Made by a program: the position numbers and the translations under genes. From sequence record SRR20825019_764: DNA of 44,820 nucleotides, one strand, 5' to 3'. Numbering within the stretch: position 1 is the first letter of the stretch; every line of letters begins with the position of its first letter. The notes beneath the pieces were generated by a model, which was not told the DNA's origin, ran no database searches, and saw nothing but the letters and a program-made list of their open reading frames with translations. This document shows positions 9,504-13,665 of the stretch, piece by piece.

Positions 9504-10037
9504 ATGGGCGGCATCAAAAACAATCCTGAACAAGCTTCCGACAATCCTATTCTGATCGATCAGACCCGATTGCTGGAAAAACTGATCTTTCATTGGCGTC
9601 AGGCCGTGGCTGAAGATTTTCCTGTCTCGATGTTTATTATCGATGTCGATCGCTTTTCGCAGATGGAAAATAAATCTGCCTGCTTTGAACAAATCCTGAA
9701 CGCGATTCGCCAACAATTTCATCGTGAAACCGACTTTATCGCGCGTTTCAACCGTAAACAGATGATGGCAATCAGCTCTCATATGAGTTATCGCCAGAGC
9801 ACCCAGATGGCTACCAAGCTTCACAAAGCTGTCGCCGCTCTGGAAATTTTCCATCCGCATTCACCGACCGGGCGCTATGCCACGGTCAGCATCGGCCACA
9901 GCACTTATGCACCGATTGAAAATGACTGCTATGGCATTCTGGATATGCTGGCCACGGTGCAATATCATATTGAGCAAGCCAAGCAAGCGGGTGGTAACTG
10001 CTCCAAAACCCGCCTGCACAGCCGGGTTTTGAAGTAA
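9504..10037 (+). CDS. stand-alone degenerate GGDEF-domain protein
   Basis: IDVDRF, RETDFIARF, TVSIG and AKQAGGN motifs; the GG(D/E)EF position reads NRKQM. Confidence 0.8.
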   Translation: MGGIKNNPEQASDNPILIDQTRLLEKLIFHWRQAVAEDFPVSMFIIDVDRFSQMENKSACFEQILNAIRQQFHRETDFIARFNRKQMMAISSHMSYRQSTQMATKLHKAVAALEIFHPHSPTGRYATVSIGHSTYAPIENDCYGILDMLATVQYHIEQAKQAGGNCSKTRLHSRVLK

Positions 10038-10041
10038 GCGC

Positions 10042-11274
10042 TTAAATCGTTTTTCTGTGGCCGGCCGGTTTCCATGCCGGTGCAATGACATTGGGCATTT
10101 TTGACTTTGCCAGTAACCGCGCCGGCGCCAGCATCATTTCGCCATAACGCTGGTTTACTTTATCCATCGCGGCATTGACTTGATGCCGTTGCCGATCCTC
10201 ATCAAAAAATAAATCGAGTTGGCGGCCCTGGCGAGGAGATAAGGCCGTCACCTGCACTTGCCAGACACCCTGCCCTTGCCAGTAATAAAACAGAAACTCC
10301 CGACAAAGCTGATAAATGATCCTGCCGTCATCAGTATGAAAACCAGCCTGGGCCTTGGTCTTAAGCCAGCCCTGCTGCGTTTTGATACCAATAAAAAAGT
10401 ATTCAGCCTGATAGTTAAAACAACGCATTCTGGCGGCGACCTTTTCCGACATATGCTGAAAATAGGTCAGAATGATATTTTCCTCACGGGTCTGTGGCGG
10501 TAACACCTTGCCATGACCGATGGTTTTGGGTGGTTTCACGTTAAAGCTCAGCGGCTCCGGGTCCAGGCCCTGCGCCATCAGCCAGATCCGTCGGCCGAGA
10601 TTACCGAAACGTTTCGCTAGCAAACTCATTGGTATCCGTTTCATATCACCGCAATAAACAACGCCATAACGGCTCAGAAAGCGACCAATGCCTTTGTTGA
10701 TGCCACTAAGCGCGGTCACCCTTTCCACAGCCAGCACTTGTTCAGCCTGCATCGGATGAATAATCGTCAGACCATCCGGTTTTTTCTTTTTAGCCGCAAA
10801 TTTAGCGGTGGTTTTATCGCCACTGATACCGACACTGCAGGTCAGACCGGACACGTTCCACACCCGTTTCCGAATACGCTCGCCGATATCCTCGGCACCG
10901 TTATAGAGTTGCTGACAACGAGTCAAATCAAGAAATGCCTCATCTACACTGAAGACTTCAATATCCGGCGTGATATCAACCAGCGCTTCCATAATCCGGC
11001 TTGATACCGCGGCATAACGGTATGGTCTGGAGGGCGCTTGTATCAGGCCCGGACAAAGCTGTCGGGCTTGCTTCAGACGCATCCCCGTATGAATACCGAA
11101 TGCCCGTGCCTCGTATGATGAGGTAATAATAGTCGAGCCCAGTTCACCATTGGTCACGGCAACCGGCTTCTTTGACCAGTTCGGGTTATCCTGTTGTTCT
11201 ATCTGTGCAAAGAAGCAGTTCATGTCGATCAGGGCAATCATCCGCGACCAGATTTGTTGCTGCTTCAGATCCAC
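10042..11274 (-). CDS. dinB: Y-family DNA polymerase IV
   Basis: DMNCFFA, SYEARAFG, SVDEAFLD, AKFA..KKPDG. GTG 11274 lies one nt after the lexA stop; alternative ATG at 11241. Confidence 0.9.
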   Translation of the reverse strand: MDLKQQQIWSRMIALIDMNCFFAQIEQQDNPNWSKKPVAVTNGELGSTIITSSYEARAFGIHTGMRLKQARQLCPGLIQAPSRPYRYAAVSSRIMEALVDITPDIEVFSVDEAFLDLTRCQQLYNGAEDIGERIRKRVWNVSGLTCSVGISGDKTTAKFAAKKKKPDGLTIIHPMQAEQVLAVERVTALSGINKGIGRFLSRYGVVYCGDMKRIPMSLLAKRFGNLGRRIWLMAQGLDPEPLSFNVKPPKTIGHGKVLPPQTREENIILTYFQHMSEKVAARMRCFNYQAEYFFIGIKTQQGWLKTKAQAGFHTDDGRIIYQLCREFLFYYWQGQGVWQVQVTALSPRQGRQLDLFFDEDRQRHQVNAAMDKVNQRYGEMMLAPARLLAKSKMPNVIAPAWKPAGHRKTI

Positions 11275-11275
11275 T

Positions 11276-11884
11276 TTAAGGGTAGGTACGCAGTTGTCCG
11301 ACCACGACGCCCTGAATCCGTACCCGCGAAGCCGGTAGTGTGATCGGTTCATAATTAATATTGGCCGGCATCAGGGTCACCGTGCCGTCATCATTGAGCA
11401 GCAGGGTTTTCAAGGTGGCATCAAAGCCGTCCACCAGTGCCACGACAATATCATTATGACGGGCGGTCGATTGCGACTGCACTACGACGTAGTCACCGGA
11501 CATAATCGCTTTATCAATCATCGAGTCACCGTTAACCTTGAGTACAAAGCGATCTTTACCGGTAAACATATAGCCCAGATCAATTTCCGATTCATCGGCC
11601 ACGGCCTCAATAAGCCGGCCCGCCGCAATTTTTCCCTTCACCGGCAGCGTCAGTGGTCCAGTCTCTGGCAGTTCGGCCTGCTCGGTCAGGCGCAGACCGC
11701 GGGTACGGCCAACATGGCGTTCCAGCAGACCGGCATCGACCAGCGTCTGGATATAACGATGCGTGGTTCCCTGCGAACGCAGACCGAGTCCGTCCGCAAT
11801 TTCTGAGACCAGCGGTGAACGTCCCTGTTCAGCGATGTAAGCACGAATAAATTCCAGCGTATCTTGTTCACGTTCAGTCAGCAT
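11276..11884 (-). CDS. lexA: LexA repressor
   Basis: N-terminal winged HTH, GKIAAG cleavage site, GDSM catalytic Ser, ATLK catalytic Lys. Confidence 0.92.
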   Translation of the reverse strand: MLTEREQDTLEFIRAYIAEQGRSPLVSEIADGLGLRSQGTTHRYIQTLVDAGLLERHVGRTRGLRLTEQAELPETGPLTLPVKGKIAAGRLIEAVADESEIDLGYMFTGKDRFVLKVNGDSMIDKAIMSGDYVVVQSQSTARHNDIVVALVDGFDATLKTLLLNDDGTVTLMPANINYEPITLPASRVRIQGVVVGQLRTYP

Positions 11885-11900
11885 GATCCCTTCCTTTTAA

Positions 11901-11933
11901 GAGAAAATAGTGAGAAGAGAAAATATAGAGAAC
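11901..11933. promoter_or_regulatory. tandem direct-repeat operator (GAGAA-N6-GAGAA twice), candidate LexA boxes
   Basis: GAGAAAATAGTGAGAA then GAGAAAATATAGAGAAC, overlapping the lexA -10 element. Confidence 0.6.
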
Positions 11934-11950
11934 AAAGGCGAATACAGCAA
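11922..11950 (-). promoter_or_regulatory. sigma-70 promoter of lexA-dinB (TTGCTG-N17-TATATT)
   Basis: Near-consensus hexamers with exact 17-bp spacing. Confidence 0.6.
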
Positions 11951-12111
11951 GCGTTTTTTTCTATTAATTGCTAAGTAATAGTGGATGAAAGTCGTGAACC
12001 ATCGCTTTACGGCTAAAATCCATTGATATCAGTGCGTTTAGTACCAAACAAGACAAAATAAAGATGAAATTGAAGCTGGCTTTCCAGAAAAAGAACTGCT
12101 ATCTTTGCGCG

Positions 12112-12130
12112 GATAATAATATTAATAATT
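12112..12130. promoter_or_regulatory. possible Fur box upstream of small ORF 1
   Basis: GATAATAATATTAATAATT matches 14/19 of GATAATGATAATCATTATC, just downstream of an extended -10 (TGcTATCTT, 12097-12105); AT-rich context weakens the call. Confidence 0.3.
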
Positions 12131-12160
12131 GTTTAACTTGATGAACTACGAGACAAGAGC

Positions 12161-12268
12161 ATGTTGAAAAAAATCGATAAACTGCTGGTGGAAAAATTCC
12201 CCCACATTATTCTTAGCTTCACTGCTTTCTGGTTGAGTCTGGTCGCTTTCGGCCTGTACAACGCCTGA
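12161..12268 (+). CDS. 35-aa small single-pass membrane protein MLKKIDKLLVEKFPHIILSFTAFWLSLVAFGLYNA
   Basis: Manual translation; GAG upstream; followed by a terminator; ungapped similarity to the neighbouring small ORF. Confidence 0.7.
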   Translation: MLKKIDKLLVEKFPHIILSFTAFWLSLVAFGLYNA

Positions 12269-12287
12269 TTCGCCTTGTAAAGCAATG

Positions 12288-12317
12288 AAAAAGCCAGTCA
12301 CTTGACTGGCTTTTTTT
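12288..12317. terminator. bidirectional intrinsic terminator
   Basis: AAAAAGCCAGTC-actt-GACTGGCTTTTTTT. Confidence 0.85.
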
Positions 12318-12356
12318 ATGGGCGTAACTTCGTAATCGCACATAAGCCGTTAATAA

Positions 12357-12370
12357 TTGATCCAAATCAA
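12357..12370. promoter_or_regulatory. FNR/Anr/Dnr box TTGAT-ccaa-ATCAA
   Basis: Perfect consensus centred at 12363.5; GATAAT -10 at 12393-12398 gives class II (-41.5) geometry for a start near 12405. Confidence 0.75.
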
Positions 12371-12446
12371 TGCTCACCACAGGGACACATTCGATAATCA
12401 ACTCAAGCTTGTTTTATCGTCAAACCACCCAAGAAGGAGGTGCATT

Positions 12447-12551
12447 ATGGACAAACTGGAAGAGTTTTTCAGTAAACATTTCGCTGAATTTATCTGCATT
12501 CTGTCAGTCGCATTTATTCTGCTGGTCGCTTACGGCCTGGTCATGTCATAA
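12447..12551 (+). CDS. 34-aa small single-pass membrane protein MDKLEEFFSKHFAEFICILSVAFILLVAYGLVMS
   Basis: Strong AAGGAGGT RBS, hydrophobic helix, paralogous to 12161-12268. Confidence 0.75.
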   Translation: MDKLEEFFSKHFAEFICILSVAFILLVAYGLVMS

Positions 12552-12555
12552 AGCT

Positions 12556-13665
12556 TCAGACAGATAACTCAAATACTCCCCGGGCTGCCACCTGGCCGTT
12601 AATCAGACATTCGACCCGGTGCTCCCCGGGATAGTAACGACGGGTTGAAAGTGGTTTGAACGTCTGGCTTTTGGTTAAAGTCAGCGGCTCTCTTGTCCGT
12701 GTCTGGATGTTTTTCCATTTAAAGACTTTCCAGCTCAGACGACCGTCTGCGCGTCGAAAGCCGATACGATAATCCACCACCAGCCGTTCGGCTTCCTGTG
12801 TTGTCAGTGTCAGGTTTAATCGTAAGGTTCCACCGAGTTTTAACTGCGTTTCGCTTAACTGCAGCTCAATATCTTTAATGACCGGCTTATCACTGAAGCC
12901 AAGCAGCGGGTAAACTTCCGCCCGTCCGCTTTTCACCAAAGTGCGCAAACCATGATTAATCAGCCAGTCGGTCTCTTTGTTCTGTAATTGCTGCCACTGC
13001 CGACAACGCATCAACACCAGGTCGGGATGATCCTTGCTGATGTCGTTGAGATTGTTCGCGACCGAGCGGCGTACATAGAGACTGGGGTCGGCTTTAAGGG
13101 CTTCCAGAATCGGCCAGATCGGCGCCGGCTCCCGGCGTAAAGCCGGTAACTGCTGTGCCCACGGCAAACGTGGTCGAATACCTTCTGAAGCCAGCCGTCT
13201 GACGTGTTCATTATCATGGCGGGTCCAGTGCAGCAGTTGTCGATGGGTCAGCTCAAAATACCGGTTCAGAAACGGCCGGATAGCAAACTCGGCGGTAAAC
13301 AGCGGCGTTAGTTTCTCCAGCACAACAAAAGCCCGTTGCGGATAGTTCAGGCCATAAACACTGACATAATCAATCAAAGGCCAGACGGTGAAACTGCTCC
13401 ACTGCCCTTGAGGCTGCTCCGGCCAGTTATCAGCCACACACTCAAGCAGACGGGCTGTTTCACAAAATCCTGACGGCAGATATTCAGCCAGTGCAGCAAT
13501 CAGATGTCTGACACGGGCTTTGAGCTCGAGCTCATCAAGTTCATGATTGGCCAGTTTGATGAAGCCCGGCTCGTCAAAGTCTGGATACACCGATTTAAGC
13601 ACAGCAGCCAGTTGCCCGACAGCAGCTGCCCCCAGTTGTGCTTTAAGCGGTGCCGGCTCCGCCAT
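12556..13665 (-). CDS. alkC: DNA alkylation repair protein, AlkC-like HEAT-repeat glycosylase with C-terminal Ig-like domain
   Basis: TAEFAIRPFL, VRRLASEGIRPRLPW, YVRRSVANNLNDISKD, STRRYYPGEH. Confidence 0.8.
   Translation of the reverse strand: MAEPAPLKAQLGAAAVGQLAAVLKSVYPDFDEPGFIKLANHELDELELKARVRHLIAALAEYLPSGFCETARLLECVADNWPEQPQGQWSSFTVWPLIDYVSVYGLNYPQRAFVVLEKLTPLFTAEFAIRPFLNRYFELTHRQLLHWTRHDNEHVRRLASEGIRPRLPWAQQLPALRREPAPIWPILEALKADPSLYVRRSVANNLNDISKDHPDLVLMRCRQWQQLQNKETDWLINHGLRTLVKSGRAEVYPLLGFSDKPVIKDIELQLSETQLKLGGTLRLNLTLTTQEAERLVVDYRIGFRRADGRLSWKVFKWKNIQTRTREPLTLTKSQTFKPLSTRRYYPGEHRVECLINGQVAARGVFELSV

Follow-up and report, generated by a model that had tools for sequence, protein, structure and literature searches.

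The window analysed here, a 44,820-nt stretch of DNA, carries two very short open reading frames in tandem, ORF1 and ORF2, and it raises the question of whether such small frames are genes and what a bacterium might gain from keeping both. The host is Methylophaga, a genus of marine methanol-using bacteria in the family Methylophagaceae. The signals around the two frames are collected in the table below. Convergent with ORF2 is a gene for a 369-aa HEAT-repeat protein (‘DNA alkylation repair’-like), whose stop codon lies 4 nt from that of ORF2, and 5' of ORF1 the opposite strand carries a lexA-like and a dinB-like gene. The remainder of the window is ordinary chromosome (rlmD, pdxJ, recO, era, rnc, lepB, lepA and the rpoE-rseABC operon).

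Table. Features of the ORF1-ORF2 locus, in window coordinates; promoter elements and transcription start sites (TSS) are predicted.
Feature	Position	Strand	Remark
ORF1 promoter, -35 hexamer CTGGCT	12076..12081	+	18 nt 5' of the -10; read from alignments
ORF1 promoter, extended -10, TG-c-TATCTT	12097..12105	+	TGnTAYNWT conserved; predicted TSS ~12112
ORF1 5' leader	12113..12160	+	AT-rich conserved element and weak ribosome-binding site ACGAGA
ORF1 (type A), 35 aa	12161..12268	+	ATG 12161 to TGA 12268; cationic amphipathic N-terminus and one membrane-length hydrophobic helix
ORF1 intrinsic terminator, GCCAGTC-ACTT-GACTGGC and T7	12288..12317	+	A-run on the opposite side, bidirectional in form
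FNR/ANR box TTGATCCAAATCAA	12357..12370	+	sole TTGAYN4RTCAA in the 44.8-kb window
ORF2 promoter, -10 hexamer GATAAT	12393..12398	+	22 nt 3' of the FNR box; predicted TSS near 12405
ORF2 Shine-Dalgarno sequence (SD) AAGGAGG	12434..12440	+	6 nt 5' of the ATG; GGAGG kept in relatives
ORF2 (type B), 34 aa	12447..12551	+	ATG 12447 to TAA 12551; acidic N-terminus and one membrane-length hydrophobic helix

The lexA-like gene (TIGR00498, 152 bits) and the overlapping dinB-like Y-family polymerase gene occupy 10042-11884 on the minus strand, between a GGDEF gene (9504-10037) and ORF1. GGDEF or SulP directly adjoins ORF1 in other clades, and in loci L020 and L038 only the lexA-like gene is found at this place. 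The cassette looks inserted, with the ORF1 -35 spared. A near-palindrome in the 5' region of the lexA-like gene, CATTGATATCAGTG (12021-12034), is shared by the five relatives closest to the window and is missing wherever the cassette is missing, and the LexA-like repressor may use it as an operator. A gamma-type LexA box with at most one mismatch was not found in 11885-12160, and a blastn search of a plasmid collection with 11885-12555 gave no match.

Both small ORFs are present, as the sequence-only reading had proposed, when open reading frames are listed from 20 aa. At a cut-off of 60 aa ORF1 is invisible, and it is indeed missing from the ORF track. ORF2 then appears with a wrong start, as part of a 64-aa frame from a TTG at 12357. 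This TTG forms the first three bases of the FNR box, and the N-terminal extension that it would add is unconserved, with open frames of 38 to 81 aa in relatives. The description of the pair as unannotated holds in so far as the names go no further than ‘hypothetical’ or ‘uncharacterized’, and fails in so far as exact copies of both proteins already stand in public gene calls.

Close relatives were reached through the neighbouring 369-aa protein, which led to six Methylophaga MAG loci at 63-84 % identity. ORF1 is 91-100 % and ORF2 82-94 % identical at the amino acid level in all six, and the DNA differences are mostly at third positions. Even where the adjacent 369-aa protein is down to about 40 % identity, ORF1 is still 69-77 % identical. 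A coding test on the last 33 codons, ungapped, of 28 unique ORF1 and 27 unique ORF2 sequences (loci L012-L041 and the window) gave a pooled pN/pS of 0.29 for ORF1 and of 0.46 for ORF2, the latter inflated by the ORF2 of L019, which is one codon out of register in the crude alignment. Median pairwise dN/dS was 0.17 for ORF1 (210 of 378 pairs usable) and 0.21 for ORF2 (135 of 351). Controls in shifted frames reached pN/pS values of 0.7-2.7, and differences between codon positions followed the order 3>1>2. The check by conservation and dN/dS that had been suggested for the pair thus came out in its favour: both ORFs are under purifying selection and are kept in relatives. Start codon, SD and stop stand at the same places in all 56 tandem pairs compared (55 genomes and the window).

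Structure prediction points in the same direction for the two proteins. AlphaFold2, run on orthologue alignments, gave a single helix for ORF1 (residues 2-34, pLDDT 91) and for ORF2 (residues 2-33, pLDDT 89). Both proteins begin with an amphipathic stretch of 14-15 residues and end in 20 strongly hydrophobic ones, and both would insert into the membrane.

Contigs from RNA libraries cover one or both ORFs in all four libraries compared. A 151-nt contig matches 12124-12274, including ORF1, with 0 differences, and a 285-nt contig from a seawater library matches 12357-12641, including ORF2, with 6. The runs contain only 5-10 % of the words of the 1.8-kb query, so that uncovered parts are uninformative. 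The contigs give neither strand, ends nor level, and DNA can contaminate RNA libraries; they are consistent with transcription and no more. One RNA contig begins at 12357, upstream of the predicted ORF2 TSS, which counts against that TSS. ORF2 is without a terminator of its own, and RNA-library contigs extend about 90-100 nt beyond its stop (12551-12660). FNR-driven transcription may therefore run antisense into the 3' end of the 369-aa gene. Taken on the whole of this evidence, ORF1 and ORF2 are almost certainly real proteins.

Public transcriptome data seem to have passed the pair by. In the part of supplement 3 of PMC11526790 that covers this region of M. nitratireducenticrescens JAM1 and GP59, only a 126-nt CDS on the opposite strand is listed from galU (Q7A_1393) to the PEP-synthase regulatory gene (Q7A_1391). 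In that part of the JAM1/GP59 tables the pair is not listed, its expected place being taken from synteny with locus L038 (PMC11526790). Judging from these tables, published Methylophaga transcriptomes can miss the two genes.

The two proteins of the window had been said to align without gaps, and they do, with 8 of 34 residues identical. Their BLOSUM62 score of 38 was not reached in 5000 full shuffles and was reached three times in 5000 shuffles that preserve the compositions of the N-terminal and membrane segments. The proposed paralogy gains further from profile comparison: hhalign, with 20 type A against 17 type B sequences, gave a probability of 97.5 % (E 6.4e-12) over 34 columns, and identity between the two copies rises to as much as 64 % in distant genera. 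A quick ML tree was built for 103 unique sequences, with identical rows collapsed. One of its branches parts the upstream from the downstream copies, and the first/second label changes once, against a minimum of 27 changes in 500 label shuffles. The support of the branch separating type A from type B is low (15.8) because only 34 columns are available. Since upstream and downstream copies split into two clades, the duplication predates the radiation of the family. Judged by alignment and tree, ORF1 and ORF2 are true paralogues and ancient duplicates.

The two types also differ consistently at their ends. Type A mostly terminates in ...GL-x-N-x (N in 38 of 56) and type B in ...GL-x-M-S (M in 46 of 56). 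The net charge of the N-terminus ranges from 0 to +2 in type A (median +1, 25 unique sequences) and from -4 to 0 in type B (median -2, 24 unique sequences). Opposite membrane topologies of the paralogues, which these opposite charges could suggest, were set aside because co-expression of ORF1 and ORF2 is not expected.

A family profile was built from 44 sequences of both types and genomes were counted as matching at E<=1e-3. The order was represented by 90 genomes; 70 had matches, all of them within the 83 Methylophagaceae genomes, and the profile search gave no match in the 7 genomes of the order's other families. Exactly two copies are present in 59 of the matching genomes and one copy in 10, and a single genome has ORF1 with a broken ORF2. 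Only the four members of the family scored well (E<=3e-16) in an even sample of 400 genomes of the class. Four other genomes of this sample gave partial matches (E 0.004-0.009) in long frames or a repeated element, none of them convincing. Among 1.84 billion representative proteins, 25 clusters match, of which 24 are 34-50 aa long and one is an 80-aa call. The family is thus confined to Methylophagaceae among the genomes searched.

One subclade (L021, L029-L032, L034, L035 and L037) has a type B C-terminus of the form ...LSWFMA in place of ...YGLxMS. The type B gene of L029 carries a frameshift, L021 has lost its FNR box, and the boxes of L032 and L029 have one mismatch. The hypoxic copy (type B) seems to be decaying in this subclade, with type A intact.

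The sequence-only reading had also placed a terminator between the ORFs and made each its own unit. A G+C hairpin followed by a T-run lies between them in the window, and by eye about 29 of 31 loci show a hairpin with a T-run no more than 60 nt from the ORF1 stop. By these signals, each of the two ORFs forms its own transcription unit. Of 31 loci, the window included, 30 have the extended -10 motif TGnTAYNWT at a distance of 40-68 nt 5' of the ORF1 start, and the -35 (CTGGCA or CTGGCT) is kept in relatives regardless of the upstream gene; some of these hexamers overlap the stop codon of the upstream SulP gene. Just 3' of the predicted TSS, the leader element (GATAATAATATTAATAATTGTTTAAC; GATAATAATATTAATAAT, 12113-12140) is conserved in the clade of the window, and we infer a function for it. 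By eye, the GATAATAATATTAATAAT element resembles a Fur-type hexamer array, and besides a Fur box an ArcA box was considered as a possible reading of the leader.

The promoter of ORF2 is of a different kind. For the 56 tandem loci a box was scored when it had at most one mismatch in the ten specified positions and lay 40-140 nt before the start. The downstream copy has such an FNR box in 55 of 56 loci, 70-125 nt before the start, of which 36 are perfect and 19 have one mismatch; only L021 is without. The upstream copy has none in the same zone in any of the 56, the best sites having two mismatches (7 loci). New here is this predicted FNR box, family-wide and on the downstream copy only. It strongly suggests that, as had been proposed, the two proteins are swapped according to conditions.

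Class II FNR promoters have their box centred near -41.5. Here 22 nt separate the box from GATAAT, and relative to a TSS near 12405 the centre of the box is at about -41.5, as in class II. The sequence features of a class II FNR-dependent promoter were thus found, namely TTGAT-N4-ATCAA near -41.5 and, in the close relative G001, an Fnr. The latter genome, a single contig of 2.9 Mb, encodes an Fnr (NF008365, 277 bits against an NCBIfam cut-off of 228) with the motif C-x2-C-x5-C, and a separate CRP. Its chromosome contains 10 perfect TTGAT-N4-ATCAA sites against 0 for a reversed-pattern control. Six are inside genes. The remaining four are intergenic, and the genes that follow them are ccoN (TIGR00780), cydA, an hsp20 gene and ORF2. 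Five other relatives have 24-29 perfect boxes per genome and 0-6 in controls, so for these lower-GC genomes the count does not carry over and ‘one of ten’ is valid for G001 only. Rows were listed for three of the five, each with one box before ORF2, and one of them also with a box before ccoN. Induction of ORF2 by FNR at low oxygen is therefore likely, and in vivo ORF2 would depend on FNR if its promoter is read correctly.

The perfect box of the G001 hsp20 gene, which encodes a small heat-shock protein, lies 113 nt 5' of it (L070:1501-1514). The slot of the leader element, directly 3' of the ORF1 -10, is taken by an FNR box in four loci, three of them tandem (L036, L039 and L112) and one single-copy (L040). 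FNR bound at this position would repress ORF1.

The claim that the family is undescribed held up in all searches made. ORF1 has no match at E<=1 in Pfam or NCBIfam, and Rfam gave no match at threshold. A profile of 44 in-frame sequences gave one irrelevant match (E 0.59) among PDB chains of at least 20 residues. The best ESM Atlas scores, 0.80-0.85, are in the chance range, and three sequence motifs of the family were not found in the literature text searched. No known family was matched, and in public gene calls the members are named only as described above.

Neighbouring genes do not point to a partner. No respiratory gene is a conserved neighbour of the pair in loci across the clades; SulP, GGDEF, lexA-like, aminotransferase, S13 peptidase and DegP genes take turns beside it. 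Because the neighbours change between clades, synteny names no partner. In G001, ccoN is about 52 kb from the pair.

Co-occurrence is more telling for cytochrome bd than for cbb3 oxidase, with the proviso that MAG incompleteness clouds the counts for both. The gene cydA is present in 37 of 83 family genomes and the pair in 70 of 83, and since cydA is found in fewer genomes than the pair, cytochrome bd cannot be its obligatory partner. The ccoN gene is present in 78 of 83, and this near-universal occurrence is compatible with cbb3 as partner, yet the phylogenetic profile cannot discriminate. The pair went unmatched in at least 9 ccoN-bearing genomes and so is dispensable for cbb3. If cbb3 itself is induced by FNR, the aerobic isoform (ORF1) would have no obvious use on it.

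The pair as a replacement for CydX or CcoQ was also considered and rejected, as G001 has canonical cydX and ccoQ in their own operons. In its cyd operon, cydB is followed by a canonical cydX (MWYFAWILG motif) and a ybgE-like gene, and the cco operon contains ccoQ and a further 39-aa ORF with one helix. This ORF lies directly after ccoP (L076:3723-3842); by BLASTP, 7 of the 15 further family genomes compared also have it behind ccoP. It may be an additional cbb3 subunit or an assembly factor.

We propose the following sequence of events. ORF1 (type A) would be read from an FNR-independent extended -10 sigma-70 promoter, with transcription stopping at its own terminator, and would be made constitutively or aerobically. 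ORF2 (type B) would be read from a class II FNR-activated promoter and should therefore appear at low oxygen, when cbb3 and bd, the high-affinity oxidases, are made as well. With falling oxygen the cell would thus probably replace one protein by the other. FNR also seems to occupy the ORF1 promoter in a few genera, where the switch would be reciprocal. The two proteins could be isoforms that take turns at one site of a respiratory-chain membrane complex, tuning or stabilising it for high or low oxygen. Overall, oxygen-switched isoforms sharing one site on such a complex are the best reading, held tentatively and at slightly less than an even chance.

Its parts are graded on their own. That the proteins are accessory subunits of a respiratory complex is possible, somewhat short of even, and is argued by analogy. 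The cbb3 oxidase would be the single most likely partner, again by analogy, with CcoM, and even so an unlikely one.

Small proteins of this kind are known from other oxidases. CydX and CydH (YnhF), single-helix accessory subunits of about 30-37 aa, belong to cytochrome bd, a low-oxygen oxidase, and CydH is encoded away from the cyd operon. The Methylophaga proteins resemble them as small single-helix proteins and differ in that they match none of the corresponding family models and are kept by many genomes in which cydA is absent. In yeast Cox5a/Cox5b and mammalian COX4-1/COX4-2, paralogous single-helix subunits exist in an air and a hypoxia form that are set by an oxygen-sensing transcription factor. 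These systems share with the pair the paralogous single-helix proteins and the oxygen-dependent isoform logic proposed for it; they are, however, eukaryotic, larger and unrelated in sequence. A bacterial counterpart of Cox5a/5b (COX4-1/4-2), in which FNR would directly control which of two ancient paralogous subunits sits on a terminal oxidase, cbb3 being the likeliest, seems doubtful. If it existed, oxidase kinetics or stability would be retuned as oxygen falls, and the two forms would differ in function through the opposite charges of their N-termini (type A 0 to +2, type B -4 to 0).

The bacterial protein closest in design is CcoM, the fifth subunit of the cbb3 oxidase of Pseudomonas stutzeri, which PMC4742706 describes as a 36-aa protein from an orphan gene with an ANR box, restricted to its genus and stabilising cbb3. 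The likeness lies in the one helix, the size class of 35-39 aa, the single lineage and the annotation as hypothetical (PMC4742706). Set against the marks by which CcoM-type proteins are described there, i.e. 35-39 aa, one transmembrane helix and an orphan gene with an ANR/FNR box, ORF2, at 34 aa, fits the description. Sequence homology to CcoM (PstZoBell_05036; conserved M17, F20 and F24) did not emerge from the profile search of PDB chains, a set that may lack the CcoM chain. CcoM is a single gene and not an aerobic/hypoxic pair as proposed for Methylophaga, and it was bound to CcoN in purified oxidase (PMC4742706).

How far other explanations compete with exchangeable respiratory isoforms depends on what the same data say for them. 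The pair could act as small modulators outside respiration, on a membrane protein such as a transporter, a sensor kinase or a protease, with one isoform aerobic and the other controlled by FNR. AcrZ, MgrB and MgtS are examples of such modulators, the regulatory and conservation evidence fits this explanation equally well, no respiratory gene is linked to the pair, and the pair is missing from some cbb3-bearing genomes. On the other hand, targets of perfect FNR boxes in G001 are dominated by terminal oxidases, and synteny yields no candidate partner since the upstream genes, SulP and GGDEF, vary between clades. We consider this explanation rather unlikely.

Very unlikely, in our estimate, are type I-toxin-like peptides that depolarise the membrane, with an ldr/ibs/zor-like tandem arrangement in which FNR fires ORF2 and growth slows when oxygen is exhausted. 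Such toxins (Ldr, Ibs, ZorO and TisB) are, like the pair, small hydrophobic peptides encoded by tandem paralogues that each have a promoter and a terminator of their own, so that size, hydrophobic helix and duplication fit, and in several clades ORF1 adjoins a lexA-like gene; stress-induced toxins exist, e.g. TisB. Type I toxins usually vary in copy number, however, and the pair is inherited strictly vertically and in synteny as exactly two diverged orthologue groups across the family. It also departs from them in having an FNR promoter and a strong SD and in that neither antisense RNA nor structured leader was seen. There is no match in Pfam, NCBIfam (ORF1) or Rfam and no conserved antisense promoter, the only promoter-like minus-strand site, TTGACG, reading TTGTCG in close relatives. 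The ORF2 mRNA is structurally unremarkable (z +0.63) with its SD strong and open, and 11885-12160 contains no gamma-type LexA box with at most one mismatch. The conserved units could finally be regulatory RNAs, an FNR-induced sRNA like FnrS and a partner, with the ORFs incidental. FnrS is an FNR-induced sRNA with a short transcript, ORF2 resembles it in its predicted class II FNR promoter and short transcript, and there is a weak, sub-threshold Rfam match to STnc430 (E 0.54, minus strand). The score of that match is 24.6 against a gathering score of 47, and the fold z-score is nothing out of the ordinary. Amino acids are kept even as synonymous sites approach saturation, a signal lost in shifted frames, and the positions of start codon, SD and stop are kept in all 56 pairs. 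This makes an RNA function extremely improbable.

Oxygen-switched isoforms on a respiratory complex thus remain the reading that we prefer. The discovery of CcoM, of CydX and of CydH was in each case accidental and came from purified complexes. In the present case, an uncharacterised family with a clear and testable regulatory logic of one aerobic and one FNR-induced copy emerges from comparative genomics alone. If the partner is an oxidase, this would to our knowledge be the first bacterial case of an oxygen-controlled exchange of paralogous accessory subunits, a principle so far known from mitochondria. Methylophaga species are cultivable, which makes an experimental test practical, and they are important in marine C1 cycling and in denitrifying bioreactors. 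For the Methylophagaceae, the pattern would mean that an aerobic and an FNR-induced copy have been kept apart since before the family diversified.
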